From: Azolla caroliniana
Taxonomy: Eukaryota; Plantae; Polypodiophyta
Length of the DNA stretch: 64,000 bases
NCBI GenBank assembly: GCA_043228905.1
Contig: JBHGNT010000008.1
Coordinates: forward strand, 1,364,001-1,428,000
Direction of reading: 5' to 3'
The notes beneath the pieces are model-generated. The model searched no databases and had not been told where the DNA came from. It saw only the letters and a program-made list of their open reading frames with translations. Both the position numbers and the translations under genes were made by a program. Below, one piece after another: positions 1 to 58,795 of this stretch (position 1 is its first letter; every line of letters starts with the position of its first letter).

Positions 1-1356
1 CTTCAACAACAACTTGCATCCGGTTGGTATTATCAACCACACGTCTCCTATGCCGATAATTCGGCATGTCCCTTCATTCCCCATCCGGACACAACTGTGA
101 TCACCGGTTGTGTAGGATGAGAAGCATTTCCGGTCCGGGGTCAGGTGGAGCAACGCTCCGGAATCGACAACCCACATTGTCTCGTCACTGGCAAGGTTCA
201 ACTCACACTCCTCGGTGATGAGCATCAACTCCTCTTCACTTGCTGCGATTGCTGTCGTTCCCTTCCGGTCCGGTCCCCTCTGGTCTTTACCGTTGCGGTC
301 CGGTGACCGCTTCAAATCGGTACTGTCGGTTTCCTTGTCTTTCTGGAAATGCTGACAGTTCTTCTGGAAGTGTCCAAGCTTCCCACAATAGAAGGAAGTG
401 GGCATTCCCCTTGACTTTGACCGTGTCCCCGACTTTTCCCGGTTCTGGGGACTCTGGTTCCTTTGTCTTCCGCGTTCTGATTCGATAAGGAGCTCTTTGG
501 AGTCAAAGCTCGTATCCTTGTCTTTCCGATGTGCCTCCTCATCTAGCAAGCTCAACTTGACTCTTGCTAGGGATAACTATTTTCCTTCTGGCCCGGCGTT
601 GCCCAAAGTGACAACTAACATCTCCCAGCTATCTGGGAGGGAACCGAGTAGGAGCAATGCTAGTACCTCATCGGCGAGAGGTACTTCCAATGATGTTGCC
701 TGGTGAATCAGCCCCTGGAAGGCATTCATGTGCTCCGCCATGCTGGAGCCATCTTGGTACCGGAGCCTCACTAGCTTCCGAAATACCGAAATCCGATTAA
801 CAACATTTTTGTTATGAAACATAATGCCGATCTTCTCCTAGAGTTCCTGAGCCTTACTGTCCTCATTGAAGTTGTTGTACAGGCTCATGTCGATGAAGCA
901 CCGGATGTATGCCGTCGTCTTCATGTGCATCACCTCCCACACCGTGGCATCGATATTGTCCGGTCTCTTGTCCCCGAACTGGACCGGAAACCAAAGATCT
1001 TTAACCACGAGCATGTCCCTCATCTTCGACTTCCATGTGAGTAGATGGAGCCGGTGAGCTTGAACATGCCGCCAAATGAATCTTCCATTTTCTGTGTCAT
1101 TTCGCTCTGATACCAGATTATAAAGAATATGCGGAATAATGCTCAGCCACAACCGAGTCTTCAATCACTTCGTTGAGAATTACAAACACAGAAATGGGAA
1201 TGTGGAGATAGATGCACGTATACACAAAACACTCTAAACAATAGAGTACACAAGATGTTAACATGGAAAACCCTGAGTGAGAAAAACCACGGGAGCCCAC
1301 AAACTCCAAACTGTTACTATGTCTAAACTTATAGACCTCGTGCTCACTCTCTTTGC
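1..1356 (-). mobile_element. Ty1/copia LTR retrotransposon, 5' fragment (truncated LTR, PBS, degenerate gag, zinc knuckle, protease)
   Basis: PBS for initiator tRNA-Met (gctctgatacca on +) at 1104-1115. Gag-like peptides WKSKMRDMLVVKDLW and LLLGSLPDSWEMLVVTL. Knuckle CPL/FYCGKLGHFQKNC region near 340-405. Protease VVDSGA near 155-175. Broken by stops and frameshifts; the LTR from ~1119 is cut off by LINE sequence at ~1357. Confidence 0.88.
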
Positions 1357-2276
1357 ATTGTGGGTCTATGCCTTCTATGTGGAGGGCAATTAGTAACACA
1401 AGCTTCGGCTGATGATTCTTTCATGTTTCTACAAGCCTCACGAGAGAATCTTGAGAAGGGGATGCTTGTATGGAACCAATTTGCATTGGCTTCCGGTTTA
1501 CATATTAATTGGAGGAATTCTAGTCTCATATCATGTACGGAAAGGGATTTGGATTGTTTAGGATGGCAAGGATCCGTGGTGAAGAAAGGCTCTATTTTTC
1601 GACACTTGGGCTATCCATCAGGAATGAATGTTACAAATGGTTAATTGATTGAATAGATGTCTAGTATGTTGAGAGATAAGTTCATGTATTGGACGTCACA
1701 ATCTTGACTATTTCATGTACGCATGAAGGTTGTGCAATGTATTTTGAAACCCATGATATTATATTACTTGTCATTATTGCCATGGACAAAGAAGGCTTTG
1801 CATTCTGTTTTGCAACCTCTTCGATATTTGTTTTGGAAGAAGAGGGATAAGATGGGAATCACATGGGTTGCATGGAATCATCTAGCAATCCCTAAGCGTT
1901 TGGGGGGAGTTGGAATATTGAACTTATCTATACATATGATGGCTCATAGATTTTCATTAACACGTTCGCATTCACAAGTGGAAGGATTGTGCATAAATGG
2001 AAGGATAAGGAATATTTTGATTGATTTTAGTATATTTTCAATGATTTTACAAAACACATTGATACTAGTATCATTCATGTTCAAATATACTATGAAAAAG
2101 GTTAAAAATCCACTATTTTCGTGATTTAGAAATAAAATAAAAAGAGGGATTTCAAAAAGTTACATTCTCAATTTATATCACAAACTTTACAACCAATGTT
2201 ATTTGATAAGAAACGATTTGTTACAAGCGGAATATAGTTACACTTAATAGCCAAAAATACATTCATGATCACTCCT

Positions 2277-4370
2277 TTATGGAGAATCACTACTATAACT
2301 AATATACAATGACGATTCCTCCTCGTCATCCTCGGATGTACCAATCAATGCATTATCTTCGTCATAAACCAAATGGTTTGACTCTAGATTATATGTAGCA
2401 GGTCTCATTTGCCTTTGACTTGAGCCACCTTGTAGACCTGGTAATTTTTCTTTTATTATATCTATTGTTGACTTCCTTAATCGTCTGACTTTTGTAAGCG
2501 TGAAGTTGTACACGATGATATCCACATTAGAGATATCAAGGGTTGAGGTGTTACGAATGTTTCGCTTCCTCTTCCTACCTCCCCTTGCCGTTGGGCATTC
2601 AATCATCTCCAATGTATACTTACCCGTAAAAGCATTTGCACTTCTAGTGTTGTACCAATGAACGTTTATAGACCTGATCGTGTTTTCTATTTCATGCATT
2701 AGCACTTCTAGAATTTTACCAACCCAAAATTGGTGGCCATGTGAATTCTCATCAACCGGCATTGCAATCAACATCCCCGTCGTGAGCTCTTGCAAATTGC
2801 CTTGCCATCTAGATCCGACTGCATTGGTCATCCTTGGTCCACATAAATGTCTCTTTGTTGTGGATGAACCAAACTATCATTAATCGCATTTGCTGGTTGC
2901 TCCAGAGTTTTATTTACACGATCATGTTGTAGCGACCATGTGAATGGCGTTTCCAAATTCCAATTATCACCAAATACACAATTGTATATAATTCCTTTCT
3001 GATCACTAAAAAATACATTATCACCATGACATGTCTTGTTGTGCGACATATTTCTTTGTGACCTCAATATGCTTTCTTTTTTCTTCTAAGGCTTGGAGCC
3101 ATAATTGTTTTTGTTCCAATACCAAGTCATTATGCAACTGTCCTTTCTTCTCAATTGGCATTTGTTTAGCTCCATGGAAAATTGTACTCCGCATACAAAG
3201 TAATAATTGCCAACCACCTTTAGGTTCCCATGTTGTAGAAGATGAATATTGTTTAACATACAAAAGCGTAGAACCACATATTTCCTTTTTCTTTATCATA
3301 AAAATGTGATTGAAGCTTATATTGTTTAATTGGGCAAGCACTTTAACATTCCCAACACCCCCATCTGATATATATCTCTTAATGTCATATACCTCATTCA
3401 AGTGTAACACTTTTGGGCGTGGTGTATGTCCATCACAAATGACATCAAATAGTTTTGGTAATGTGAAAGCATCATGGAGAGACAACTATCTGGAGAATGT
3501 GCTAAACATCTTATCTATATGATCATGTGTGTGGCCAAGCATCCCAGTTAGATAGCTAAACATAGTTGAATTTTTGTTCTCTCTAGCAGTATTGTCCAAT
3601 TGAATGTATAGAACATGGGGGAACGGTTGGCCCCAAGACATCAAAACTCGGTGAATCACTGTAACTGTTAGGTTAGGGTCATTGTGAACATTGGGGTATG
3701 TAATGAAGACGTGAGGTCCAACAGACCTATTATAAGCCAAGCATCCCACCAAGTGCATTTGAACAAGGCACTCATCATTGATGTCTTTGGGGAGCCTCCA
3801 CATATGTGGCAAGCACGTCTTCTTCTGGTCCATGCCATCTATCATTAAGCACATGTATTGTTTGGGCCTCTTCAAACACTTCTCTCTATGATGCATCGCC
3901 TTCTTTCGTTCTAACAATTGTGCCTCACGATGCTCCTGTAGTAACTTCTTACTCATATCCTTTTCCATTGATGTCTTTGCACCTGTAGCCAAACTTTTAA
4001 GATTTGCACAAATGGAGCAATACCCCATGCGTACTTTACGCGGAATGATAACATTTGAAAACCGAGCTCTCCATAATCTTGTGAATTGGCTATATGTGAC
4101 AGATTTATTACGTGAGCCCACCATATCTGATCGATAGACATCATAAACTTCCCGACGTGTGTAATTATCAGAGAGGTGCATCCTACCTATAGTGGGCATT
4201 ACTTCACAATTTAACTTAAAGTAACTTTTCATCCAACCAATAACATGTCTTCCAATTGCACCTTTTATACTTGGAACCTCTTTACAATTGAGCATCTGAT
4301 CCCCGCTAAGTAGACATTGTTGTACTCTATGTAGTCGCGTGTTACTCTCTATGTTGCTTTGAGTATTCAA
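2277..4370 (-). pseudogene. DDD/E transposase (Sola-like), disrupted
   Basis: CSIC zinc motif followed by MCLMIDGMDQKKT, YIQLDNTARENKN and GHTHDHIDKMFS (three candidate catalytic Asp) in ORF 3486-4370. Continues through a stop and frameshifts into ORFs 3021-3485, 2828-3067 and 2277-2831. True start not resolved. Confidence 0.8.
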
Positions 4371-4689
4371 TCATTGGTTCATTCATGAACCTCTATCATT
4401 GTTTTATTTATGACCTTCAAAGGCATTGTATGTTAGTTTGAGTATAAAATAATCATTAATATGTTAGTTTGAGTATTTAATCATTGATTCATTCATAAGC
4501 ATCCTTTAATTCAAATCCATTAAAGAGTCATTGGCACATTCAAGATTATGTACTAAATAGTGTACTAAGGTCTAAGAAAAAAGTGTCCTACGGTCAAAGA
4601 AACTCTTTCTTAGGTCTAACTAACTAACCTTAAGCTTACCAACCATGGTTAAAGTAATTGTGGTTACTTTAACCACAATGGTCAATCCC

Positions 4690-4697
4690 TATAAATA
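4690..4697 (+). promoter_or_regulatory. TATA box of the transposon's + strand gene (putative)
   Basis: TATAAATA lies just upstream of a candidate first exon (4723-4854) that ends in a consensus donor CAG|GTAAGT. Confidence 0.5.
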
Positions 4698-4948
4698 GGA
4701 AGACCTCATTTCGCAATCACTCATGCGCAGAACAGAGCACACGAGCACACAAAGCACAAACAACCCATAACACGCAGCACCAAATCAACATCTCCCCATT
4801 AGCATCGACAACGAGAATCATGTCTTTGAAGAATATCGAGCGCCAAGAATCCAGGTAAGTGCCTGGCAGTACGAACATTTTTGTAAATATGTTTTAGCAC
4901 TCAAGAACTCGATACGGCGTATCGAGTTCTTGTATAAAACACAAGCTT

Positions 4949-7900
4949 TGATGAGAAAACGTTGCGGAATATAAATCACAGTGAACAGATTGCACGCTGA
5001 AATACGAATTGCAGAAATACAGAAAGACAAGATGAACAGAAGTATACACAGAGATTTACGTGGAAACCCTAAAACGGGAAAAACCACGGGAACAGATTTT
5101 TCACTATACAAAATAGTGGATATACAATAGCGAGAAGATTACAACACTCTCTCACGAGTGCATTAGTCGCACAGGGCTCTTCGTGTCTGCTGTTACACAC
5201 ACAGCTATGGCGCGGCTCTACCTTCCTCTCACACACTCTCTCAATCTATTCTTACTCTAACTCCTCATAAGCTAAAAGTTTCCCTAGTTGCATATATACT
5301 TACACAACTTTCTGGTTATTTACATACATGGCCCTCATGGGGCGCACACTTAGACTATTTACACAAAAAATAGTTCCTCATCAATGCGGCTCCCGTCTTC
5401 CAACTCTTCAACTATCGGCTTTCCGAACAGTCAGATCATCCTCCCACTAGAGGGACATATTCCCAACAAACTCCCCCTTCACTCCTGTGGGAGGAAATCT
5501 GTCAGTCCTGTATTTTGTCGACAGACTCTGAGTCTATCCATAGGTAGGTTCTTCGTCAGCATGTCAGATCCATTGTCGTGAGTATGGATCTTTACAAGAG
5601 CAAACTCTCCATCTTCGACTCTCTCCCGCAACCAGTGATACCTTCTCTGTATGTGCTTCGTCTGGGAGTGGTATGCTGCATTCTTGGTTAGGTGTAGGAC
5701 ACTTTGGTTGTCACAGTGAAGCAAGAACTCCTTTTGCTTCATGTCTAGTTCGGTGAGAAAATTTCTCATCTAGATCAGCTCTTTTCTGGCCTCTACCGCT
5801 GCCATATACTCTGCCTTGTTGGGAGACAGGTCCCTCCAGATGGGAAGGGAGAAGAACAGTGCTGATAGGCTAAGGCCGAAACCGGATGAGGAGTACCCGG
5901 CTACGGAGAGCCGGATGGTGCAGACCCGGTGAGAACCGGATGAGGAGTACCCGGCTACGGATGACCCGGTGAGAACCAGATGATGAAGACCAGGTGAGAA
6001 CTGGATGAGGAGTACCCGGCTACGGATGACCCAGTGAGAACCGGATGATGAGTGCCCGGCAAGCGCCGGATGATGCAGGCCCGGTGAAGAGTGATCACCG
6101 GATGAAGGGACATATTTGTAAATATGTTTCTGAGAGTCCATCAGGGCTATATTTGTAAATAGATGAAAATTCATATTAGTATAAATATGACTTAGGGCAA
6201 ACAGAGAATATAGTGTTGTTGTCATTCTTGTTGGTGCAAGACTTGAGAGCGTGTAACAGTGTATAGAGAGAGAGAGAGAGAGGAAGAGGTCGCTACCTCT
6301 GTTGTAACCACCGCCTATGGCGAAGATCGTGAGCACGAGGTCGTTGCCTCCGTGAGCTCACTATTGTACATTCTGATATAGTGATAGTTTGCAGTCTGTG
6401 GGCTGTCGTGGTTTTTCCCTAGTTTGGGATTTTCCATGCTAACATCCTGTGTACTCCTCTCTCCATTGTGTCGTGCTTTCATTTCCCGTTTTTTGTGTAT
6501 GATTCTAAGCTCGGTTGTGGCCGAGCGTTGCGCATAAGGAGCGTCTAGTTCCCGTCATGCCTCTGTAGTCGACAAGGTTATAGACTTCTGCAGTCATGAC
6601 TGCCACGACATTGCTCCCCCTGCATAGGTCATCACATACCCTGACGTGGATCGACTCGAGTCGACATCTCCTGACATGTCCAAATCGGTAAAACCTTCCA
6701 CCACAGGTTTTCCGACACCATACCTTAGGCACACCACCGAGGTGCCTTTCAGGTACCTGAGTATCCACTTCACTATTGCCCAGTGTTCTCTCCCTGAATT
6801 ACTCATATATCGGCTTACTGCTCCCACAACAAATGCTATGTCCGGTCTCGTACAGACCATAGCGTACATTAGACTGCCGATGGCCGAGGCATTTGGTACC
6901 TTCTTCATCTCAGCCTTTTCCTTCTGCCCTTTCGGACACTACTTTGCATTCAATCTGCAATTTGTCGGCAACACGGAGCCGACCGGCTTTGCGTTCGACA
7001 TGTTGAACCTCTCTAGGATCTTCGTCACATACTTTTGTTGTGACAACTATAGCACCTTCCGAGCTCTATCTCGGTTTATGTGCATTCCTAGGATTTGCTT
7101 TGCCGGTCCAAGGTCTTTCATGGCAAATGATTTTCCGAGGGCTTTCTTCAAGCTTCCAATCTTCCTTGCATCTTGGCCGATATCAACATATCATCAACAT
7201 ATAGCAAGAGAATCAAGAAATCTCCTTCCTCATACCTTTTGACGAACACACAATGATCAGCCTGTGTTTTCTAGAACCGATGTTCCACCATGAAGGACTC
7301 GAATTTCTTGTACCATTGGTGTGGAGCTTGTTTCAGGCCGTACAAGCTTTTCCTCAGTCGACACACCAGATTCTCTTTCCCTTTCTCCTCAAAGCCTTCG
7401 GGTTGATACATGTAGATTTCTTCATCCAACTCCTCGTGCAGAAATGCGGTTTTGACATCCAACTGTTCGATCTCCAGGTCCATGCTAGCCGTTATGCTCA
7501 AAACAGTTCGTATCGATGTCATCTTCACGACTGGTGCGAATATTTCGTCAATGTCGACACCCTTCTTCTGTTGGAAACCCTTCACTACTATGCGGGCTTT
7601 ATACCTGGGCTCGTTGTCGACTTCTCCAGTCTTAACCTTGTCGACCCATTTATTCCTGAGTGCTCTCTTACCTTTCGGCAGCTCTACTAGGTCGTAGGTG
7701 TAATTCACATGCAAGGATTCTATCTCCTTTTGCATCGTGTTCAGCCATTTTCTCTGCTCTCGTCGGCAATGGCTTCTTTATAGCACTCCGGTTCACCCTC
7801 ATCAGTCAAGAGGATGTATTGCCTAGCATATGTAGTCGATGCTTTCCTTTCTCTGAGTGGGTACCTTCGTCCACTCGTTGTTGGCTCTTTTCCGAATGTC

Positions 7901-10750
7901 TCTGCCAACTCTTCTCTTTGCTTGGGATTCTGCTCATCAATCGGCATCTCCAGGTTCGAGTCATGGCGTCGAGTCATACCTGGTGTTGGCGCGTTCACTA
8001 CAAGAGTTGACCCGCCACAAGAGCAGAGTCTTGATGTAGTCAAAAAGATGATCCAATGAGGGTAGCTAGGCCTCTTATTTATAGCGATACCCAAGGGCCC
8101 CAGGCAAGTTCACACTTGACCTAATGGGTTGTCTCAATCCCAAGGATTAAAAGTAATCCTCCCCTTCTTTACACTCTCGTTTAACCCTCACACTTATCCA
8201 CGTGTATAGAATACTACGGTAAATTCTCACCACGGGATATTAAATGGTCATGCCTGTAACAACATCCTTCCCTATGCACACCCTTTGTGGGACATCACCC
8301 TTTAATGGCACTGAGGGAGACCTGTTGATCAGATAAACAGTTGTGTACAATGCCTCAACCCAATAGGATTTCGACAGTTTCGCATGAGAGAGCATGCTCC
8401 TTACTCTCTATGATCGTTCGATTCATCCTCTCTACAAGCCCGTTCAACTCTGGGGTCTTTGGTACTGTGTATTCAATTCGAATACCTTGGCACTTGCAGT
8501 ATTCTTCGAACTTCCCTTTGTATTCGGACAACCTTCAGTTTCCGACCCGACTCTCTTTCAGTTCTTGCTTGGAACTCCTCGAAAACCAACAGTATTTGAT
8601 ACTTCGACTTCAGTACGAAGGCCCATGTTTTCCGACTGTACTCGTCAATAAACGTTACAAAGTACTGTCCTCCTCGATGCGATGGAGCATCCACATAGCA
8701 CACATCCGTGTGCACTAGTTCCAGTGTAGCTTCTCTTCTCCTCGGTGGTCTCGAGTGGAATGCTGCCCTTGACACACTTCTCTAGGTGCACTCCCTTGAC
8801 TTCTGGCAGAAGTTTCTGGTCAGCTAATAGGTGCATTCCCTTCTCACTCATGTGGCCTAGCCTCTTATGCCATATGTCCCCTGCCGAGTCGGCTGCCACG
8901 TTTACTTCCGATTTGCACAATCGGGCATGCATCGTATACAATGTGCCTTCTTTCTGTGCTCGGGCCACTATAAGATTTCCTCGGCAGAACTTCCACTTGC
9001 CATTCTAAAAACTACCACTGTAGCCTTCGTCGTCAAGCCTTCCAAGCGATATCAGATTCAATCTGATATCGGGGACGTGTCGAACATCCTTCAACGTCAG
9101 TCGACACCCTGTCGATGTCGTCAAGCAGACACTTCCAACTCCGGTTATCTTGCACTCTCCACTATCACCCATCTTTACATAACCATGATCCCCGGCTATG
9201 TAAGTCGAGAAATACTCTCTCGACGGAGTAATATGGAAGGATGCGCCGGAATCGATCACCCAAGTGCATTCTTCACTCGCAAGATTTGCACTTGTCTGCT
9301 CACAAATGAACAGGAGTTCTTCATTGCTCTTAGCAATGGCCGAAATGTTCTTATCATCCGGAATTTTCCGGGGTTCGACATTATTTCCGACACTCTTGTC
9401 TTTTCTCATGTGTCGGCAGTCCTTTTGGAAGTGTCCAGGTTTCCCGCAATAGAAGCACACAGGCTTACCTCTGGACTTCGATCTAGCGTGGGATTTGTCC
9501 GTTCGCTGTGGACTTCTTCTTCGCCGGTCTCTTCCTCTGTCAAGATGTTGAGTCAGATTCGACTCCGTTTGGGACAGGACTCCTTTGTCTTTCCTCCTTG
9601 CCTCCTCGTTTAGGATGCTTGTCTTCACCATCTGTAAAGACAAGTTCTCTTCTTGACAGGAGGTGCTGAGAGTAACCACCAGGTTCTCCCATTTCGGCAG
9701 TGTGCACATCAGCAGGATGGCCTGCATTGTATCATCTAGGGGGAACTTGGTCGCAACAAGTTGATTTACATACCCCATAAACGTGTTGATGTGTTCGACG
9801 ATGCTCTCACTGTCTCTGTATTTCAATCGTACAATTTTTCTCATTTGCGAGGTTTTGTTTAGCACGTTCTTCCTCTCATACAGACCCGACAACTTTTGGC
9901 ACATCTCGTGGGCATTCGTGTCGTTCGCCACATGCTGAAGGACACTTACATCGACACATTGTCGGATTATGGCCACCGCCTTCCTATTCAAAAGCTTCTA
10001 GTCCGACTCCAATACCCCCCTGGGTATTTCTGCTTTGTCAACTGGCTCGTACAGGTCTTTTACTATGAGAAGGTCTTCCATCTTTATCTTCTAGTCTGCA
10101 TAGTTCTGAGAGTTTAGAACTATCATACCTGGGAATCCACTCACGCCTCCTTCCATGCTTGCACCTCAAGCTCTGATACCAGTATGATGAGAAAACGTTG
10201 CGGAATATAAATCATAGTGAACAGATTATGTGCTAAAATACGAATTGCAGAAATACAGAAAGACAAGATGAACAGAAGTATACACAGAGATTTATGTGGA
10301 AACCCTAAAACGGGAAAAACCACGGGAACAAATTCTTCACTATACAAAATAGTGGATATACAATAGTGAGAAGATTACAACACTCTCTCACGAGTGCATC
10401 AACCACACAGGGCTCTTCGCATCTATTGTTACACACACAGCTATGGCGCAGCTCTACCTTCCTCTCACACACTCTCTCAATCTATCTCACTCTAACTCCT
10501 CATAAGCTAAAATTTTTCCCTAGTTGCATATATACTTACGCAACTTTCTGATTATTTACATATGTGGCCCTCATGGGGGGCACACTTAGACTATTTACAA
10601 AAAATACTCTCCCCAGTTGGCTATTTACACGATTCCGGTTTCGGCCTCGGCCGAGTTCCTCATCAACTCGGCTCTTGTCTTCCGACTCTTCGACTGTCAG
10701 CTTTCCGAACAATCGGATCATCCTTCCACTGGAGGGACATATTCCCAACA
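4949..10750 (-). mobile_element. Ty1/copia LTR retrotransposon, degenerate, nested in the DNA transposon
   Basis: LTRs 4949-5468 and 10185-10750 (TG..CA), TSD AGCTT (4944-4948 and 10751-10755), PBS at 10170-10181, PPT at 5469-5479. Gag/knuckle/protease ORF 9005-9991; integrase, RT (EQLDVKTAFLH) and RNaseH fragments. Confidence 0.95.
5817..6557 (+). mobile_element. Copia solo LTR inserted in the RNaseH region of the 4949-10750 element
   Basis: TGTTGGGA..CCCGTCA with TSD TGCCT (5812-5816 and 6558-6562). Its start and internal ccggatgag repeats resemble the LTRs of the 58062-63624 element. Confidence 0.9.
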
Positions 10751-10759
10751 AGCTTTAGA

Positions 10760-11098
10760 GTTCCTGTATAAAATTTGTGTTTTATACAGGAACTCGATAC
10801 GCCGTATCGAGTTCCTTTTTAAAGTTTGTGTTTTATACAGGAACTCGATACGCCGTATCGAGTTCTTGTTTAAAGTTTGTGTTTTATACAAAATCTCGAT
10901 ACGACGTATCGAGTTCTTGTTTAAAGTTTGTGTTACATACAAGAACTCGATACCTCGTATCGAGTTCTTGTGTAAAGTATGTGTTTTATATAGAAACTCG
11001 ATACGTCGTATCCAGTTCCTGTGTAAAGTTTGTATTACATACAGGAACTCGATACGCGCCGTATCGAGTTACTGTATAAAACACAAACTTTAAACAAG
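10760..11098. repeat. Tandem array of ~51-bp units, each with a ~27-bp palindrome
   Basis: Six units built on GGAACTCGATACG-N-CGTATCGAGTTCC. A seventh copy at ~4903-4931 was separated from the array by the copia insertion. Confidence 0.92.
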
Positions 11099-11712
11099 AA
11101 TATTGTATCTTTGGGGGAACAATTTGGTATATGTGTAAAAAGATACCAATTTTATGTCCAATTCAGACTTTTTAAGTGATATTTGCTACATTTTGTAACT
11201 TTTAGTGCCCTTATTGAAAAAGGTTTTATGACCTATAATAGCTTAAAATAATAGAAAATGACCCACGAATTACCTTTATCATACGAAATTCAAGTCTATC
11301 GTATTGAAATTCTCAACAATATGGGATATGGAATCAATATAAGTCATACCTACCCTCCAATATGATACATATCCGTATATAATTCGCCGTATCGAGTTCC
11401 TGTATGTAACACAAACTTTAAACAGGATTATTGTGTCTTTGGGGGAACAATTTGGTATATGTGTGAAAAGATACCAATTTTATGTCCAATTAAGACTTTT
11501 TAAGTGACATTTGCTACATTTTGTAACTTTTAGTGCCCTTATTGAAAAAGGTTTTATGACCTATAATAGCTTAAAATAATAGAAAATAACCCATGAATTA
11601 CCTTTATGATACCAAATTCAAGTCTATAGTATTGAAATTCTCAACAATATGGGATATGGAATCAATATAAGCCATACCTACCCTCCAATATGATACATAT
11701 CCTTGTATAATT
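11057..11712. repeat. Tandem duplication, period ~328 bp
   Basis: cgccgtatcgagtt..tttgggggaacaatttgg..ccctccaatatgatacatatcc occurs twice, starting near 11057 and 11385. Confidence 0.9.
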
Positions 11713-14700
11713 ATTAAGATATATAATATTCGATTTAAATTCACAATAAAGGTCTATCATGTTCATAGAAAGTATGATTGATATTTAGAGTTTAGCACAA
11801 ATCGCTTGCTAGTTTTTGTCTTGGTCTACTTATGTATATTTTAATATGCAACCTTAATCTAGGAAACCAACTAACTTATATTTTCGCACGTCCTTTTTGT
11901 TTCAGAACTTGTTGGACTGACCTGTGAAGAAAATAAAGCTCTGAATTCAGGGCTCTCCAATTGAGACCCAGAAACAAATAGTTCCTCAGAACATGAAGAG
12001 AGGAAAAAAGCTTCTCTTCAATGAGAAGACAAAATCTCAACCATCCGATGATGTTAGCCAAAAGAAAATGTTAGTTGCTACTGGTGGTGAGGATCTTCAT
12101 GACCGTGATCTAACGGACAAGGAATGGTGTATGTAGTACGTTGACTCCAAGAAAAAAGTCATGTTGTATATGGCAAAGAAGAAGGGTGACGATCAGCTTG
12201 AAAATGACACCGCATTTATGTATGGCCGTATTCTACGATTTGACTACGAAGATTTAGATTCAGCCAACACTCTTGTAAATTGTAATGATAGAGTGCTCGA
12301 AGGGGGTACGTAAAGTGTACCTTTCTGAAGATCGACTAGTAAAGGAATCTTGTGGGCCAGAATCTTTTAAAAAAGATCTACAAAGCTCACAAAACCTTAT
12401 TATCACCTTGAGGCCTTATATACAAGGCCATGTAACTCTAAGGGAGCCCTTTCCCTCCCTAGTGAAGGCCCCGAAAAGGGCATCTAAAGTGCAATCAAGA
12501 CCAGCAAAAAAGAAGACCACTAAAATGTCAAACTCCAACTCATCAAGCTCAACCGAAGAGGAGGACACTAGGGGGATGCCAGGTGCTGAGTTGGCTTTTG
12601 GTGTGTTGTCATCCAAGCAAAATAAGATACGGAGAGAGTTAATGCAGTGTAAACTAGTGAGAAAAGGGCAAGTGTTTAATTTGCCTATAACACACATCCA
12701 TCGGCCCCCAGTAGATGTAAAAACAGGACAAAAACCACTTGAGATCAGAGAGCCACACCGAATGCATGTTCAGAATCTCAAGAAAAAAATGAAAATAAAT
12801 CTGCATGCTACAGTTATGCCTTTCATTGTGATGGTAGATCTCGAAGAATGTTCCACAACTGAGGACTTCGACGTGAGAAAGCATGATCAATAAAATTACT
12901 TTGTAATTGGTGCATCACATTCGGCTGAAGCACGCCGGCAACTTGTTAGAGAGCACCCAACGACTTTCTTCTTCAAGTATGCCGAGTGCAAAATATACGT
13001 GGGCCTCACAACTGAAGAGGCAAAGCTTTTGGCATGGGACCACAACAACGACAATGACTATAGGGAAAAAATGTCATCTATTGAATGGATAAGGTTCTTC
13101 CACCATGAATACCTGGACGTCAAACAAAAGTTTGGTGTGAAGCTACACCCTGGCCTACGACGTCAATGCCTTCATGAGGTCGACATTGTGGTGGATGATA
13201 ATGTTAAGTCAGATGGTCTTCAGAAATATGAGTCCTGGTTTCAACTTGCCTTTAGAGATGGAGAAGTATGGGACCTACAAGATCAAATCTTCTCAATGTG
13301 GGAGAATAAGGAGGTCAAGGGTCAACGACAAAAGAAATGTAACGTTGACCCTCAACTAGAATGAAAGTCACAAGTGGCCAAGAAAATTGATTTGACAATT
13401 GAAGAAGTGGTTGACGACATGAAGCTGTCTCTGTGGAGAGCGATGCAAGGTATTAAGGACGAGCAACTTCTTGTGTCTGTTTTGTCAAGGGTTGTGGCAA
13501 AAGATTTAAGCCTTGAAGAAATGGTCACTGAGTTCAATAAGTAAGTCTTTCAAATAGTGATATTGAATTCAATATGGTGCAATTGAAAGTTCTAATCTCA
13601 TTTTCTAATTTCACAGTCATAAGGTGTGCATGAAGATCCAAGAAGTTATGATGAAACAACTTGGATGTATAACTTGGGAACAAGTGACCGAGGAAAATCC
13701 TCTAACGTCTTCATATAAGGCGGTATCCGAGTATTTTATTGCATTCAAGGATTGGGTTAGTATTGGTGTTTTTCATTAAGTTTTCCTCATATGTAGAGGT
13801 TGTGCAATAATACTTGATGTCTTATTGCTTCTATTAGAAACCATGTCGTGACAAGAAACAAGGAGAAGTTAAGGATATACATGATTTCCCGACATCCTTG
13901 CACATCTCGAGAGAGCCAAAAAAGAAAAGGATCGTCGTTTAGTCAAGGCGTACGAAATTGAGGAAGATGGCTCCTTCAAAAAGTTTAGCCATAAAAAGGA
14001 CATTACGAGAGATCTTTACTACAACATGATTTGCGGCGATGTCGTTGACATGATCCAAAAAGTGCCAAAGAAGGAATATACGCTAATGATTGTTGATATT
14101 CCATACGGATTTCAAATGGTAGGGTCATCATACGACGATGAACCTTTTAGGTTCAAACAGTTAGAGAAGATGGTCAAGGATTTTGCTAAGCTAACGACTG
14201 CATCCTTGTGGAGGATAATTGTCTTTCATAGTATGGACCAAGGGTACTCGGTAGCTCAAGCTTTGAGATCTCGTTGCCATGGCATCGAGAACCTTGCATG
14301 GTAAGGATTATTTATAAGTCTCATTCACTATATTGCCTTTCTTAAGATTGTTCAATCTATTCTTAACTCGATGCAATATTTGTTATAGGATAAAAACCAA
14401 TGTCAATAGAGGGCCAACCTTTTGGTTCATAAATGCCATTGAATATATTATGGTTGGCTACTTCGATGAAATAAAGAAACAAAGAATCAAGGAGCATTCT
14501 AATGAAGTCGGAGGTTCAAATCTGCTGGTATATCCAGCAGTGACACGGAAATTGCCACATGTCACCACGACGGAACGGGGACTTGTCAACCCATACCAAA
14601 AACCTCAACGACTTATGATGCGCTTGATCAAGATGTTTTCTATTGAAGGAGATTGGATATTAGACCTCTTTTCTAGCACAGGTATTCCACGAACTAGGTT

Positions 14701-15591
14701 AACGATCTTGAGATAACCAGTACTGATTCTTTTTTGTTTGAAAACTAATTCTTCTTGTTGCTTTCTTCACAGGGACAACGTCTGCATGTGCATTGAAGCT
14801 CTTCAGAAACACAATTGCATTGGAGAAGGACGAGGAGCAAGTTATATTTATAAACATGAGGATTAAGGGTTTGTGGGAGTGCCCAGACCAGGATGAGGAG
14901 TTCGGAGCAAAGAACCTCGCTGATACCGAAAGGTTTCAACCTGCTTCGCGAGAGCCTATTCGTCCGTTAGCTGGGGAACCAGGGGAGCTAATAGAGCTTA
15001 TAGAAGATATTTCGTTGGCTCGGCTAACATGGGAAGACAATGCACGTATAGCCGAAGAGACTTCTATAAGAGATGAAGAAGAAAATGACATTGACGATTT
15101 GATTGCTATGGAATAGACTCTTTTGTTCATGAAATGTATTGTTTGGAATTCACATTACTAATACAAAATTTGGGTTTTACTTGGTGTATTCCATTCTTTA
15201 TAATCTTCTATATGTTTCAATTTTATTTCTATATACTTGGTTTTTTGACTTATGACATTGGTTTCACCTCGTGCATTGTTGATTACCAATATGGAGAAAC
15301 ATGAATTAGTTTAAATTAAGGTTGATTTTGGTCAAACTTTACCTTAACATAACATGTCGTAGAATTGTTGCCATGACTGTCCATGTTGTTATTTGCGATC
15401 AATTGTTGAGATTGTCATTCCATGTCTAATATATACCAGTCCATATATTATGGATCTTTGTCTTCTATTGTTAAAACTATTATGTTTCTCTTCCATTGCT
15501 GCTTAGATTGTGTAGTGTGTTGATAACGGTTCCACTAGCGTTATCCGCATGTTTTTATACGCTTGTAGTTCCACTAGCATTATCATTCTGA

Positions 15592-15868
15592 GTTTGATCC
15601 TGTGTGAATCACCTAAGGAATAGATTAGATCAATTTTAAATACAAGTGTTGAAAGCCTTAATAGGTTTGCTATTTCCATCACATTATCCTAAAGTTCATT
15701 GTCTTACATTGTCCACAATTATATACATATGGTTTGATCCCATGCGAACAAACTGAGGAATAGATTAGATCAACTTTAAATACAAGTATTAAATACCTTA
15801 ATAAGTTTGTTATTCCAATCACATTATCCTAAAGTTCACTATCCTACATTGTCCACAATTATATACAT
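15592..15868. repeat. Tandem duplication, period 140 bp, in the transposon's right arm
   Basis: gtttgatcc..ggaatagattagatcaa..gtccacaattatatacat starts at 15592 and again at 15732. Confidence 0.85.
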
Positions 15869-18800
15869 GTGAGTATGGGTCAAAGTATAAATTATAATTC
15901 ATTTTATTAATATGGTTACAAGTACACCTCATATTTTTGTAAAACTTACCAAATTAATATAAGTCTTTAACTTAGTGTTTCCCATGTCGCACATTAGTGA
16001 GATATTGAGCCATTGTTGAACTTTATTATGCCTACATTAACTTATCAACACATCCAAACTTATTTGAATTTCTAATGATCTCCACTCATAGACCTATCAT
16101 ATATTTTTATATTTGCAAATTCTAATCAAGTTGTGGAACATGTGATACTAGTGCATCCAATTTTTGTAGAGAGGGTATATTTGGATATTTTCAAGAAGAT
16201 TCTACAAGTGGAATGTGCGATACTTCCACTTGTGAACGCAAACGTGTTCATTATTACAAGACATGTGTTCAAACTCACAACCATGGATATCTATTGTTCA
16301 ATATTTCATTGAGAACAAGGGTTTAACACATAGGAGGACAACGATTAAGGCTTCATGGTGGCAATTACTGAATGGATGTATTTCACTTAGGATTTTAGGC
16401 TCTTCATGGGTTCAACACTTGGTTACCTCATGACAAGAAGCACTCTTGTTATGTGTATGGAAACTACCATCTAGTACAGAGCATTGTAATTCTTTACAAA
16501 AAGAGTTACTTGTGTTTTCTCGGTTATTATGTTGGCCAAGAAAGGAGAGATTGCACTCTCAATTTAATCGTTTGTTTCATTTGGGGGTCAAAGAGGTGGG
16601 AGATATAGTTGAGGCTCCATCTCGATGAAATTTAGAGTTTGTTGAAGCGCGACAATTATTACGCATCCCACCTAATTATGGGTTTATCTAGAAACAACTA
16701 CAAAATATTGCATTGATCCAAGGTTTCTTACCTCTGCAAACAGGAGAACAATCGTGGATTGATTGGTCTTTACGAGGTCAAACATCGTTGTTACAAGTGT
16801 CTACTAATCTTTTGTATCATTGTTGTGTTGAGTCTCTTGAATGGCTATCATCTAAGGTTGAAGAAGATTGGAAAATACACAAATGTGATCATGGGTGGTG
16901 GCAGATCTTATAACGTCGTTGTCATTCTAAATTACCACTTGTCGCAAAGGTCTTCATTTGGAGAGTTTTGATTGGGGGATTGCATTAGGGATTAGCTCTA
17001 AAGCGTCGTGGACTAGCAACGGGTAATTGCTTGTTTTGCATTGTTCAAAGATAGTACTCATCAATTTATACAATGTTCGATTGCTTGTTAGATTTGGAGT
17101 TACATTTCTCAAATTTGGCAAGTTTTATCAAGGTGTTATTTGACACGTAGACAATGGGTGATTGCACAATTTACACAGCTTGACCCAAAATCAAGGATGG
17201 AGATCGTTTTCCTATTTCTGAGATATTGGGGATTGCATCATAATTGGAACATGCGCAACGCTTTTGTATTCGATGGTACACATGGAGTGAAAGAATATCT
17301 ACGAAAGTTGAAGGGAGTACTAATGTGGCAATTTTCATTATTGGAGCACGTGGAAATTATTTCCTCGGTGAAGTGATCATCTTGCCTATTGGCAATTCAA
17401 CATGTTCCACTACCCATGTAGTGTAGTTAGTGGGTGACCATACTCCATTGCCACACCCATTTTAAGTAGTGTTTTTCACACACATTTATTAATATAATTG
17501 TGTCACGTTTTCACCCAAAAAAAAAAAAAAAAATACAAAATGTGTTTAGAAACATTAACAACAAAATGCTAGCTTTAATGTTAGACATGACATGAAAGGT
17601 TGTTGGAAGGAAAGACCATGAATCTGTGTATGTACGATGGGGAGAGAGAGAGAGAGAGAGAGAATTAGTTATTATTATAATCCTCAAAGGTCAAATATGA
17701 CCTATGGAACCATGATCTATGCTTCTAAAGGTAAAATTATATTGATTATGAGTCTACAACTATAAATATGAAAACAAGGTTAGATCCAATTGCGGTACAT
17801 GGCATTGACCTGCGAAAATGTAAACTCGTAATTGGGATAAGGCATTCTTTACTAGTATTTAATTCTAATGAAGACTTCATCAGTAAGACTTTGATAAAGG
17901 GTGAGTTGCATTTTCCTCACCTTCTAATGGCTTCTTGTCCGTATAATAGATTGAATTCGTGCACATGCATTATTCTATTTTGACTTACATGAATGGAAAA
18001 AGAACATTGCATTTTAGTGGATCCACCCCTATTTTTTTAAATGATTTTTTTACATTGAATATCTTTCTACATTCAATTTTTTCATTATCTTCCTAAAATC
18101 TAAGCTACAAAACTCATAATATAGCTTGGATACATTATTTGAAGGAGCCATAGAGGCCAAGATATATTAGATGGTGTTGTCGAGATGAACTAAGTAAGTT
18201 GTCAAAAGTAAAATATCATAACACATTGATGATTAATTGAATAGACAATGGTTATTGTGACATTGGGGCCGCGTTTTAGCACATGTATGGTACATCTATG
18301 TCTTCCACATCCTAAGAACTTGGATACTTACTATCAATATTTTTTGAAGTCATTCACAAGCTAGTATACACCTAATGTAGCCTAAGAGGCACCGCCATAT
18401 TGACATTCTCGTACATTGATGTCTGCTCCACAACCAAACACATTTAGACAATATGTCATCCAACAAATCACTTTTTAACACATTAATGACATCAATCAAG
18501 CCCGCCATCGAACTTACTAAAGAGGAACCGACATGCTTGAAGTCTTCCATTGTTTTATATCTTCTCCACCATCGAGTATATACCACTTAGGTTGTTTAGA
18601 TGTTCCTTTATCGGTCAATCCTATTTGATACATTGTATGATTTAAACATAGCGTAAGAGGCGTTACCACAATGTGAGTTGTTGAAGTACCTCATTTTATG
18701 AATTATGTGCAATAATGACCTACCAATTGATTCTCCAATTTAGCACTAATTTGTTCTCAAGTCAATCATTTTTCGCTACATGGATGTTGCAACCCCTTTC

Positions 18801-19815
18801 TAAAGTTAATCGTAACAACTCATTTGGTTAATATAGCATCAAAGGGAGACATCTGTACACCTATATCACGGATAAAAATATAGATAAAGAGAAACATGAC
18901 AAACTGCTTTTTAATTTATTTATGTTAGAAATTTTGAATAAATTAAAACATTGTCTCACCCATAAGACTTGTTATAATCGAAAGTGATTACAATTTGAAA
19001 CCTAGGATGATGTATAAGGACATCATGAGCATAAGCAATCTAGAAACTCTCGTTCCTAGGCCAAACGTCATGATCACCTATTTAAATGTATTTCTCTCTT
19101 CATTTTTGTAGCATTTGTGAGTTGTTCCCAAGGAACGTTTCTTTAATAACCGACGAGCTTTGCACGAAACTACTACAAGACAACACCACGATGCCGTAGG
19201 ACCTCCAAATAGAAATATCATATGATTTCTATCCGATACACAATATTCCATCAAACTGATGAGTTAAGAAATGCCACCATTCATAGTGAAGTAATGTTGA
19301 CGGCATATTTTTCCCCGAACATGCATGTGTAGCCGAATTCGAAAGATCGAACTACTAGTTCGGTGGGAATTTGGCACATTTTAGTAGGCACATAGATTTT
19401 TCTTTTCATTGGGAATAAAATATACTCTTAAAACAACCTCAAAGTGAAAGGTGGCTTCCATTACATTTAGCAAGAAAATAAAAAAAACAAATAAATAACT
19501 AAATAAAAGCATAAAATGCTTTGTCTTGAGAAATTAGACCATTGAATCGATTAATAATCCAAATATCCAATAATAATTTGACAAATAAATAGATATAAAA
19601 AAAATATGAAACCCATGATTAATTTGTACCTAATAAGTCAAAATATTGTTTGTCATGATTATTATTATTTGTTTAATAATTTCAAGGTAAGATGTATACA
19701 TATGTATAAGAAGCCACTGCTTTTAAAGGCAAATTTGGGTGTCCCCCTAATTACTCCATTAAATTCCAGATTTGATGATTAGAGCTAATTAAAGAGGGAG
19801 AAGGAGAAGGAGAAA

Positions 19816-20541
19816 ATGAAGAGAGATAGAGCACCCATTGTGACTAGGGTGGTGGAGGTTCAAGCCCCTATCCTCATCCATGCACACCCCTCCAATTTCC
19901 AGCTAATTGTGCAGCAATTGACAGGCAATAGTAGCACTGATTCACCCTCTTCCATCCATTCATCCTCATCACCACCACCAGCTACCATTAATCCAAACTC
20001 TACACCAATCAATCCCACAGTTAACATCTATTCTAATTCTACTAATTCTACCATCCCATCATTCATGTCACTCCAATATAATTGTCATTATAACATTTGT
20101 GATGATAATGATCATGATGATGATCATCATCATCATCATCATGTTGGGTTGTGTAACCACAATTATACTCTTAGCCCCCAACATAATCATCAAGATCTTG
20201 TAGCTGATGATCATGTCTACTCTACCAATAACAATTCAAATTTTATACCTTATGATATTCATCACCAACTTCATGAGGATAATCTTGACCATACATTCTA
20301 TCATTGTGAATCTCATGATCACATGGATCCTCCTCTCATGGGTAATGTCCTACCTCAAGGTACTTCTGATTCTTCTTCTTCTTTGATGACTCATTTGTAT
20401 GCCATCCCTCGGGACAATGTTTCGACTAGTTGTTCCCCATGTATTTCTCCTCATTTTATCTCGGATCGTGACCTTCATTCCTACTTCACGGATCAACTTG
20501 ATCAAGACTTCGACCTGGCGAATCCCTTTAATGATCATTAA
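19816..20541 (+). CDS. VQ motif-containing protein
   Basis: Intronless 241-aa ORF containing HPSNFQLIVQQLTG (FxxxVQxLTG consensus) near the N-terminus, followed by a low-complexity Ser/His-rich tail. Confidence 0.85.
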   Translation: MKRDRAPIVTRVVEVQAPILIHAHPSNFQLIVQQLTGNSSTDSPSSIHSSSSPPPATINPNSTPINPTVNIYSNSTNSTIPSFMSLQYNCHYNICDDNDHDDDHHHHHHVGLCNHNYTLSPQHNHQDLVADDHVYSTNNNSNFIPYDIHHQLHEDNLDHTFYHCESHDHMDPPLMGNVLPQGTSDSSSSLMTHLYAIPRDNVSTSCSPCISPHFISDRDLHSYFTDQLDQDFDLANPFNDH

Positions 20542-25169: not shown

Positions 25170-28100
25170 TTAACCACCTAGAAGCAGAGGAGGCTTCGTT
25201 GCCATGGACGTGGCCGTTTCCTCCTGATTCTGTGAGCCCATCGTTTGTCTCGGTGCTGCCCAAGCTCTCAAAGCAGGTTCAAACAATTTACTTGTAACAT
25301 CTGGAGGTGGAGGTTCTTCGTCACTCGGCAAAACCACAAACCCACCCTCACGCAGTAGAGAAGGCTCATGAAAACACATCTCCCACAGGGAATCAATCAA
25401 AGCTCGTTCCTCCTTGACCACGCTGAGCTCTTCTGGATCCATACTACGAATCTGCTCAATCCTTGACTCTAAAGCTCTCCGTAGGTTCATCGTGTTCTCT
25501 TTCTCCTCGGCATGGTCATTGAATTTCTCATTTCGTGCCATTTCGACAAGATTGCGCAATGCAGTTTGTCGAATGTCAACATCATCGGCAACTACAAGAC
25601 TTACAAGGGGTTTGCTGAATCCAAGGTCCGCCGCAATGCTATTATCATTGGGATTCTCATGTAAGAGGTAATGCAACACTTGCAAACCTTTCCTGAGCCA
25701 ATAATAAATATAGATACATCAGCCAATCATTATATAAAAAAGACTTATTGAAATAGAAAATTACTAAACTGTTCTACTAAAGTCTAGTGTCTTGACTCTT
25801 AAATACCATAAATTTACAATATAAAAAGAGCAAAATGATATAAAGTCTCATTTTCTACATAAGTTTTTAGGAGGAATCAAGTCCCACTTTCTACCTATAT
25901 ATGTGCCCTTTAAGGTTCCAAGAGTTATTGAATACACATGTTAAAAACTTCTAACAAACTCCACAATATTTGGTGAATGAAAAAAGAGGGACAATTCAAA
26001 AATGACACTCTCGACCTTTCCTTCCTCTTTTGGGGGGGCGGGGGGAGTGTGATTGTCATTCACCCAAGGTTGGAGTGGGAATTAAAATCCCAACCTACAG
26101 CTTTAATGTCAAAGACCAAAACCACTGTTTCCCAATAGTTATTTTTCTTCCAAATGGAGGGTCTATCGCTCCCAACAGTATTGAACATATAAATTTGTTC
26201 ATCTACTTTAGGAAGCCCTTAGAGTTCATGCATCATATGGCAGTTAGCCATAAGAGTTATCTTTTTATGTGGGAGCTTTTCTAGAGGCCAAATTTTGGTT
26301 TGAGAAAGTTAACCTCAGAAGATTGCCAAGATCTCCTTGTGAAGGAAAATATAACTTATGAAAACCAACATAATGGTGCCATTCATCCATCTTGTGCATA
26401 TGTAGTTTGACAAAATCTTCTCATGAAGGAAAATATAACTTATGGAAACCAATGTAATGGTGCCATTCATCCATCTCGTGCATGAAGGGAAATATAACTT
26501 ATGAAAACGAACACCATAGTGGCACTCATCCATGTCATGTCATGATGGGAAATATAACTTATGAAACCAATATAATAGTGGCATCCATCCATCTTGTGCA
26601 TATGTACACACACAGAAACAAATATATATGTGTGTGTGTACATATAATGTATGTACTTGCATATGTATACATGAATCTAAGTGAAATGCTCAGTTCTGAG
26701 ATCGTCTCAATTCATCATCCACACAAAAGAAACAAATCCACATAAATAATCTGTACCTCTGAAATTTTGGATTATCAGAAGTTAATGCAGCTTTGAGTCC
26801 CATATAGCCATTACCCAGACGAAACGCTGTAACACCAGGCTTGTTGTTCCTTATTAAAGCTGACAACATTCAAATTTTCCTGAATGAAAACCTTGAGCAG
26901 AAGAAAAATAATAATAGTACACAAGCATCTATATGTCTAGTAAATATACAAAGCCTTCTGTGTTAGTACAAGTAAAGACATGACGACTTTCTTCTGTTAT
27001 GTTTTCTTACATGATATGGCACCCAAAGACTTTGCTCGTACTGTCGAATCTGGATCTGACATGAAATTGAGGAGCAAGAATTCCAGCCCATTGGCATCCA
27101 TAACAATCTCCTGACATTTTGGATTATTTTGAACCATGGTGCTCACAACCTCGGAAGCTCTAGCTCTGATGGATGCATTAGGGTTCTTCAAATAATTCAG
27201 AAGAGGAGATAAACCTCCTATTGCATGCAAATCTGCAGAAATATTTTGGACATTGATACTTTCACAGGTTCAAGTGAAAATACGTACTCAAACCTGATTT
27301 TAGAAAAAAGATTATGAGAATTTTTTCAAAGTTTGTGGTTTATAAATTACCATTTGCCATGTCAATGGATTCCACATGCATTTGGAGCTCCTCCAACATT
27401 CCTGAAAATTAAAGTAGGATAAAGTAAATGCACCATATGGCTTAGCAAGAACCTCACATTTTTGCAGCACATAAGTGCAGAAAATCTGGAGACTATCAAT
27501 CATAATGACATTTGATAAGCATGGAAATAGTTCAACTTTTCGTGAGCTTACAATACCACCTATTGCAAACAAAGATGTATGATAGATCACTGGTGATATA
27601 ATGACATTTTCAAGCCTAATGAGACACTCATATGCACCAGAAACAAGTAATCAGCACATAGATATTGCTAAAATTCAAGCAAGAAATGAAAGACTCGCAC
27701 TTGAAGAGCTATAAGATTCAAGCAAGAAATAAAATATCCGCTCGAAGAGCTCCATGATGATGAATTCTATTCTAAACAAGGCAAACTTATCCAAATCAAT
27801 GTCAGCTACACATTTACAATGTGACTTATCCTGAAGATAATCAATATTTTCATTAAAATGGGGTACAATAAATGAGAACCTATATTTCCCTTTAAATCCA
27901 TAAATCCAGGTTCATTCCTACCTAACTAAACTACTCCAGATAAAACCTGAATGGATACTAATAAAAACCACAGTATACACGCCAACACTCCAAAACCCAG
28001 TTTCCCTAACTATCATGGCATGTCATATTCTAGGCTAATATTCATACATTTAGTCTCCCACACTCCTGACACAATGACAAATGTAGATAATACCAAAACG

Positions 28101-58536: not shown

Positions 58537-58690
58537 CTCATCATCCGGCTCCGTAGCCGGGGTCTTCATCATCCGGCTCCGTAGCCGGGTCTTCGTCATC
58601 CGGCTCCGTAGCCGGGTCTTCGTCATCCGGCTCCGTAACCGGGTCTTCGTCATCCGGCTCTGTAACCGGGGTCTCTTCATCCGGCTTCAT
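58537..58690. repeat. 27-bp tandem repeat in the LTR U3 (also at ~63376-63529)
   Basis: About five copies of gggtcttcgtcatccggctccgta(g/a)cc. Confidence 0.9.
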
Positions 58691-58795
58691 GCCGGGTACT
58701 ATTCATCATCCGGTTCCGTAATCGCAACCGGGCTTGCCGTCATTCATCTCCGGACATCCCATCCGGAGGGACCGAAATCCCAACAAACTCCCCCT

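Follow-up and report, generated by a model that had tools for sequence, protein, structure and literature searches.

Does a DNA transposon of land plants carry, as a regular second gene, a DNA amino-methyltransferase fused to a ParB-like domain? The question is raised by a locus of the fern Azolla caroliniana (assembly GCA_043228905.1, contig JBHGNT010000008.1, positions 1,364,001 to 1,428,000 of the forward strand). Within this stretch of 64,000 nucleotides, analysed whole and hereafter called the window, a unit bounded by terminal inverted repeats (TIRs) holds a transposase gene on the minus strand and a methylase gene on the plus strand. A preliminary description, made from the sequence alone, proposed the methylase as a standing second gene of the element. 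This was borne out: other contigs and two named genomes show the two genes linked, and the methylase has a low ratio of non-synonymous to synonymous substitution rates (dN/dS). We conclude that the methylase is confirmed as long-conserved, standing cargo of the element in ferns and a liverwort, and that the window element is a broken (dead) copy of a many-copy family of Sola-type cut-and-paste transposons.

Linkage of methylase and transposase

Copies were counted in contigs of four public DNA runs from three organisms. Per run, 2,527-7,539 contigs aligned to the methylase half of the element and 1,505-5,122 to the transposase half. Summing contig depth in each of the four runs, which had been chosen with the methylase, gave methylase-to-transposase ratios of 0.74-0.97; these are no copy numbers and were not used as evidence of one-to-one linkage. 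A scan for the methylase yielded 79 loci or contigs (L numbers below), nine with a DUF7869 transposase. The genes are head-to-head as in the window in L008, L036 and L038 (57-77% identity over the ParB-side query), and tail-to-tail on opposite strands in L001, L003, L004 and L068 (distant lineage). What L016 has downstream of the methylase is no more than 27 transposase codons, where the contig stops. L028 was considered as a tandem variant and rejected, its two genes being separated by a right TIR; positions 4040-6332 of that contig hold the right end of one element followed by the transposase of another copy, either a nested insertion or a chimeric contig. Trees of both genes (a quick version for the transposase) pair the window copy with L038, and L036 with L008 and L028. 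No claim of co-divergence or of a donor is made, because the deep branches are unresolved.

Named homologues were found in Chara braunii, Riccia sorocarpa, Ginkgo biloba and two Adiantum species (30 of the 150 matches were looked up), together with further homologue loci in Chara. Four of the eight methylase-family genes looked up in Riccia sorocarpa lie no more than two locus tags from one of at least 41 DUF7869 genes (pairs 010796/010795, 022317/022315, 015340/015338 and 017506/017504), where chance would be expected to give such linkage at about 1e-7. In Adiantum nelumboides one of four is linked, L7F22_049838 adjoining L7F22_049839. The linkage thus recurs in several lineages, which is not the picture of a one-off capture.

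Some of the counts point the other way. No transposase is seen in 70 of the 79 contigs, because most of them end at the palindrome array described below; however, L039 and L055, whose methylases are truncated, show none although they continue upstream for 4.7 kb and 3.6 kb. In Riccia, 37 of the 41 listed transposases have no methylase neighbour among the eight genes looked up, and no Chara transposase is among the matches listed (120 of 214).

Selection on the methylase gene

The methylase gene is near-full and free of stops in 29 loci. Over 16-17 unsaturated pairs the median dN/dS was 0.027 in the ParB region, 0.045 in the helical middle and 0.071 in the methylase domain, with a maximum of 0.10 in the ParB and methylase domains; the N-terminus of the gene had a median of 0.30. 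In most of the remaining pairs dS was saturated, with dN below 0.3 in both domains. These values have to be discounted to some extent: the pairs lack independence, a single contig may combine several copies, and dN/dS is lowered because the contigs were selected by conserved motifs. The gene does not evolve neutrally; its ParB and methylase domains are under strong purifying selection. The transposase core gave dN/dS of 0.02-0.07 in four pairs, and the transposases of L008, L036 and L038 have open frames of 829-888 codons.

Identity of the encoded protein

A profile of 20 homologues matched the beta-class methylases MboIIA, M.BceJIV, M1.HpyAVI and CcrM in a PDB profile search. The order of motifs is that of the beta class, motif IV preceding motif I in a PF01555 fold. 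The evidence on folding comes from an AlphaFold model of homologue P0041, which had a mean predicted local distance difference test (pLDDT) score of 75.9; the window's own ParB region, folded without an alignment, reached a pLDDT of only 30. The methylase part of the P0041 model aligned to CcrM with Z 22.9 (root-mean-square deviation (rmsd) 3.2, 219 aligned) and the N-terminal part to PadC with Z 9.7 (rmsd 3.2, 100 aligned), followed by KorB (8.9), SerK (8.0) and sulfiredoxin (7.7); the match to the pNOB8 ParB (Z 8.5) reached into the helical region. The ParB-like motifs of the preliminary description are therefore backed by a ParB/sulfiredoxin (Srx) fold on the predicted model of a homologue, whereas Pfam finds no such domain. 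From profile and model, the second gene is predicted to be a fusion of a ParB fold to a beta-class amino-methyltransferase.

The ParB nucleotide-binding box carries arginines (GxRR or GxHR). The putative box here reads GGSHS, GGNHS or GGGHS, its G and H invariant and no R following. Motif IV, which was no part of the search pattern, is DIPY in 57 of the 65 loci that cover it, DVPY in three and DIPH in two, and DFPY also occurs; D, the second P and Y are retained, and the distant homologue P0173 has DPPY. It has been reported that most N4-cytosine enzymes are marked by the S of SPPY and that D at motif IV indicates adenine (PMC8885841). The D therefore favours adenine over cytosine as target, without being decisive, and N6-methyladenine (6mA) is probably a likelier product than N4-methylcytosine (4mC).

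Several results sit poorly with these assignments. Neither Pfam nor the PDB profile search recovered the ParB domain; the ParB Z-scores of 8-10 are moderate and taken from the model of a homologue; N4-cytosine enzymes are nearly as close to P0041 (PvuII and N4CMT, Z 19.3); motif IV is DIPY where the canonical form, (D/N/S)PP(Y/F), would give DPPY; and glycines of the ParB and S-adenosylmethionine (SAM)-binding motifs have been lost from the window copy.

The full fusion had no counterpart in searches of phages, plasmids, IMG/VR and GTDB, which were of limited sensitivity. Phage and plasmid methylases matched the C-terminal domain only, at 23-29% identity among the rows listed, and scanning IMG/VR and GTDB by pattern gave no relative. 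ESM Atlas gave two leads, which we treat as no more than that: the ParB-like region of L038 (5140-6111) resembles fungal DUF3723 clusters (0.96), so that DUF3723 may be a family of ParB-fold cargo, and the methylase part resembles phage-type PF01555 clusters. Homologue P0132 joins the helical region to a sterile alpha motif domain, has no methylase and is possibly a domesticated copy; P0030 (Chara CBR_g41648) has a tandem pair of ParB-methylase units in one gene model.

Palindrome array and CpG footprint

The palindrome array reported between the coding regions is real, and its position could be refined: it lies within intron 1 of the methylase, as does a copia retrotransposon nested in the window copy, because exon 1 sits at 4820-4854 (Table 1). 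All six matches of the motif CGATRC-n3-GYATCG in the window fall within the element; across 26 loci the motif has 105 sites, of which 91 lie upstream of exon 2. In other contigs the first palindrome is followed by further units, as is expected of the structure without the copia. Five of six contigs of the distant lineage carry CGAKAC-n2-GTMTCG. Proteins of the ParB family bind palindromes. The half-site is conserved across distant lineages while the spacer has changed, and this suggests recognition by a dimeric protein encoded by the element. The transposase itself could also be the palindrome binder. In L012 (4756-5650) a second array, of another subfamily, lies 3' of the methylase and suggests a nested element.

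The outer CpG of the half-site is its most constant part (CG in 202 of 222 slots, a figure partly built into the search pattern). In the window copy, decay of CpG to TG or CA was seen in none of 30 array slots, against 19 of 57 ancestral CpGs in the exons (p 2e-4) and 11 of 44 slots in the pair of long terminal repeats (LTRs) of the nested copia (p 0.002). The LTR more distant from a palindrome accounts for nine of these 11 LTR losses (one-sided p 0.03). This pattern fits a local zone that escapes 5-methylcytosine (5mC) even after the copy died; sparing of the array after that death would require a protein supplied in trans. Together, the conserved palindrome and the spared CpGs may be taken as indirect support for a mark on the element. 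To be set against this, the units of the array do not count as independent observations, a 300-bp stretch surrounding exon 1 is likewise CpG-rich (observed/expected 1.0), and the sparing could come from gene conversion among the units or from an ordinarily unmethylated promoter.

Possible roles of the fusion

The reading that we prefer, at roughly even chances of being right, is that the fusion binds the array by the two divergent promoters, methylates the DNA there, probably at adenine, and keeps the region active. The protein would bind the palindromes in the first intron of its own gene, between the divergent genes; once bound it would methylate nearby DNA, adenine being rather likelier than cytosine; and the methylation would keep the shared promoter region clear of silencing by host 5mC. 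We infer palindrome binding, catalytic activity, the base marked and the anti-silencing effect of the fusion. A much broader version, which we regard as doubtful, is that seed-free plants, Ginkgo and charophytes share an ancient read-write system of the element, in which a ParB-like clamp would sit on parS-like palindromes and 6mA from the fused methylase would shield the bidirectional promoter from 5mC, in trans and even on dead copies.

The mark could instead be 4mC on the CpG cytosine of the half-site, occupying the very base that the host would 5-methylate. The constancy of the outer CpG and its lack of decay in the window array would suit this, as would the structural closeness of PvuII and the bdelloid N4CMT (Z 19.3); however, motif IV begins with D, unlike the S of SPPY (PMC8885841), and the best matches in sequence and fold are N6-adenine enzymes, so that we consider it fairly unlikely. 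Rather improbable, too, is that mark or binding represses or times the element, as negative autoregulation with no shielding from the host. An array in the first intron beside both promoters is a typical feedback site, and self-restraint would likewise give purifying selection, but self-repression alone predicts no spared CpGs around the array. Dam methylation acts on promoters of bacterial insertion sequences, a parallel for such autoregulation.

We assign a similarly low probability to a protein whose ParB and helical parts work by binding, as a transpososome scaffold or a binder that excludes 5mC, while the methylase has no activity or has RNA or single-stranded DNA as its substrate. The non-canonical DIPY and the ParB part's having the lowest dN/dS argue for it; in addition, adenine methylase domains borne by DIRS elements are thought to be inactive, and several eukaryotic ones have moved to RNA (PMC4738411). 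On the other side, the methylase domain retains motif IV, motif I and its fold, with dN/dS of 0.07. That the methylase is a host or foreign gene captured once and drifting as a passenger is highly improbable: it is broken in the window copy (four stops), but three lineages and two named genomes show the linkage, 29 near-full copies are free of stops, and dN/dS is at most 0.10 in both domains.

Classification and ends of the element

The minus-strand transposase of the preliminary description was identified as DUF7869, which is probably the Sola transposase core. Acidic motifs conserved in DUF7869 are DGMDQ, QLDN and GHTHDxID. A PDB profile search with the transposase found no solved relative. 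Sola elements make 4-bp target-site duplications (TSDs) (PMC10741241). Such duplications flank the window copy (CATT) and L036 (TGTT), those of L008 being mismatched, and the TIRs agree at 26 of 29 positions with 23 different right flanks. It has been reported that the Sola1 group prefers AWWT targets (PMC3845634); only one of the 23 flanks begins with AWWT. With a DUF7869 transposase and a 4-bp TSD, the element fits the Sola superfamily.

The TIRs placed at 1960-16247 are genuine, but each end was one base short: the unit spans 1959-16248, its inverted ends agreeing at 24 of 26 and 26 of 29 bases. AA lies outside CACG in 17 of the 18 right ends that BLAST found in other contigs. The terminus is therefore AACACG, and the bounding direct repeat, itself genuine, is the 4-bp TSD CATT. 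L036 is a second complete element and L008 a third; the two flanks of L008 form no TSD, and this contig may be a chimeric assembly. Mobility is seen in 23 right ends, a hand-picked set (L008-L075 and the window), with 23 distinct flanks; a further end, that of L065, lacks the AA. A 6-bp TSD would fit the window copy and L036, yet was rejected because the A that it needs at the fifth flank position occurs in only 6 of the 23 right flanks; an 8-bp TSD was ruled out on the same 23 flanks. A purine stands directly beyond the TSD in 17 of the 23 right ends and suggests a target preference.

Excising the unit gives an open frame that spans the junction, as had been reported. The host frame was then called a long interspersed nuclear element (LINE); the flank is a high-copy repeat, Pfam gave no match on it, and the LINE label, based on motifs, is tentative. 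Subtracting the nested copia leaves an element of 8,483 bp, in agreement with the earlier figure of about 8.5 kb. The tail of another copia (window 1-1300) abuts the left flank, and its LTR is similar to those of the nested copia.

Gene structure of the window copy

The methylase gene model was projected from L038, which has six exons and an intact frame of 976 codons. All five projected introns are GT-AG in the window, and Pfam recovers N6_N4_Mtase, in support of the spliced plus-strand gene described earlier. Both genes are pseudogenes here. Compared with L038, the window transposase is missing some 200 codons at its N-terminus and a further 15 ahead of GHTH; it also contains frameshifts and, at Q429, a stop. 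The methylase has four stops plus frameshifts: exon 2 contains premature stops, including those at 12891 and 13362, and frameshifts, exon 4 is 4 bp shorter than in other copies owing to a deletion near 13894, and SAM-binding motif I reads DLFSS where L038 has DLFSG. Private changes number 72 synonymous, 50 non-synonymous and three stops in the window copy, against 83, 27 and none in its nearest relative, L040. The nested copia is flanked by the TSD AGCTT at 4944-48 and 10751-55. Tandem duplications occur in non-coding parts of the element at 11057-11712 (328 bp, 95%) and 15592-15871 (140 bp, 86%).

Table 1. Features of the element in the window (positions are those of the window).
Feature	Position	Strand	Basis and remarks
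Left TSD, CATT	1955..1958	+	Identical to 16249-16252; the L036 TSD is also 4 bp
Left TIR, starts AACACG	1959..1987	+	26/29 against the right end
Sola-type DUF7869 transposase pseudogene	2277..4370	-	Pfam DUF7869, E 8e-21; comparison with intact relatives
TATA-like box, putative	4690..4699	+	Sequence; comparable box in L038; 5' of exon 1
Methylase exon 1, predicted	4820..4854	+	ATG, 35 nt, GT donor; matches the 35-nt exon of L038
First palindrome unit	4906..4928	.	Core CGATAC-n3-GTATCG; intron 1
Copia LTR retrotransposon	4949..10750	-	In methylase intron 1; LTRs 4949-5468 and 10185-10750, 7.9% diverged
Six further palindrome units	10791..11070	.	51-bp spacing; intron 1
Palindrome half unit	11388..11398	.	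3' of the six-unit array
Methylase exon 2, acceptor uncertain	11906..13540	+	Variable N-terminus, ParB/Srx-fold region ~12654-13066, helical region
Methylase exon 3	13617..13755	+	GT-AG, projected from L038
Methylase exon 4	13838..14300	+	Motif IV DIPY at 14095-14106
Methylase exon 5	14389..14681	+	NPYQKP and first part of SAM-binding motif I; Pfam N6_N4_Mtase, E 5.5e-7
Methylase exon 6	14773..15116	+	GTT, LEKDE, acidic tail, stop
Right TIR, ends CGTGTT	16220..16248	-	BLAST-found right ends; alignment to left end
Right TSD, CATT	16249..16252	+	Copy of 1955-1958

Relation to known systems

The earlier label of a candidate new system is too strong, as the same architecture is in print for a brown alga. 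Sola1-1_Ec32 of Ectocarpus, described in 2025, has a gene for a ParB-like domain and an N4/N6 methyltransferase opposite the transposase, and self-modification was proposed; its termini are AACCG, its TSD is 4 bp and its best match is Sola1-1_PPa (PMC12477816). The present element is likewise a Sola with a 4-bp TSD, termini starting with AAC (AACAC here) and the same proposed role, and by comparison of descriptions it shares the ParB-methylase opposite the transposase in the window, L008, L036, L038, L001, L003, L004 and L068. In contrast to the single Ectocarpus family of 21.5 kb with 282-bp TIRs, the elements described here measure about 8 kb, have short TIRs, form many subfamilies and live in land plants. 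The main text of the Ectocarpus paper does not use the word palindrome, and the parts of it covered contain no selection test. For land plants, we found no published report of ParB-methylase cargo in a transposon; Repbase and older papers on Sola or methylases could change this. The present results extend the range to land plants, show that the two genes have long been associated and are under selection, and supply a conserved candidate target site together with a footprint of CpG protection.

A second algal parallel is found in the red alga Bostrychia, whose Plavaka elements, with the accessory genes PAG2 and PAG3, include a transposon-borne PF01555 methylase and a ParB-like protein by inverted-repeat arrays; PAG3 was argued to bind palindromes (bioRxiv 10.1101/2025.02.11.637652). 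A methylase and a ParB-like protein carried by the element and proposed to bind and modify it are common to both systems. The Bostrychia elements differ in having an EnSpm/Plavaka transposase and separate genes, with methylase-SET and ParB-2OG-oxygenase fusions. In fold and motif order the protein resembles bacterial CcrM, M.BceJIV, MboIIA, the DpnA-like M1.HpyAVI and RsrI; unlike these beta-class enzymes, to which it is 23-29% identical over the methylase domain alone, it has DIPY, and spliceosomal introns interrupt its gene. Marchantia DN4MT1 and the bdelloid N4CMT are also eukaryotic beta-class amino-methyltransferases of bacterial origin, but they belong to the host, have SPPY and produce 4mC, and the parts of the respective reports covered mention no ParB. 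VANC, an anti-silencing protein encoded by the Arabidopsis VANDAL transposons, counters 5mC through arrayed short non-coding motifs. The analogy is functional only, since VANDAL belongs to the Mutator superfamily and VANC is an unrelated protein with no methyltransferase domain.

Land plants were reported to have few adenine methylases (Iyer 2016, PMC4738411), and methyltransferases occur in viral Mariner elements (PMC3627910). Transposon-borne ParB-methylase genes were formerly the subject of no more than untested remarks in algae. In ferns and a liverwort they are present in many copies, are conserved and go with a single transposase family; Ginkgo and Chara have homologues. With the palindrome as candidate target and L038 and L036 as intact relatives, a self-written mark other than 5mC is directly testable. 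If real as 6mA, such a mark would supply plant genomes with site-specific adenine methylation and would represent a new type of anti-silencing.

Other features of the window

An apparently intact, young copia occupies 58036-63634, with an open reading frame of 1,382 codons (58796-62944, minus strand) and near-identical translations of the LTR regions on both sides. Three host genes were also noted: a VQ-motif protein at 19789-20541 (Pfam), what is presumably a fragment of an HSP70-binding-protein-like gene at 25170-25718, and an exon at 48675-49508 that is presumably pectate-lyase-like.

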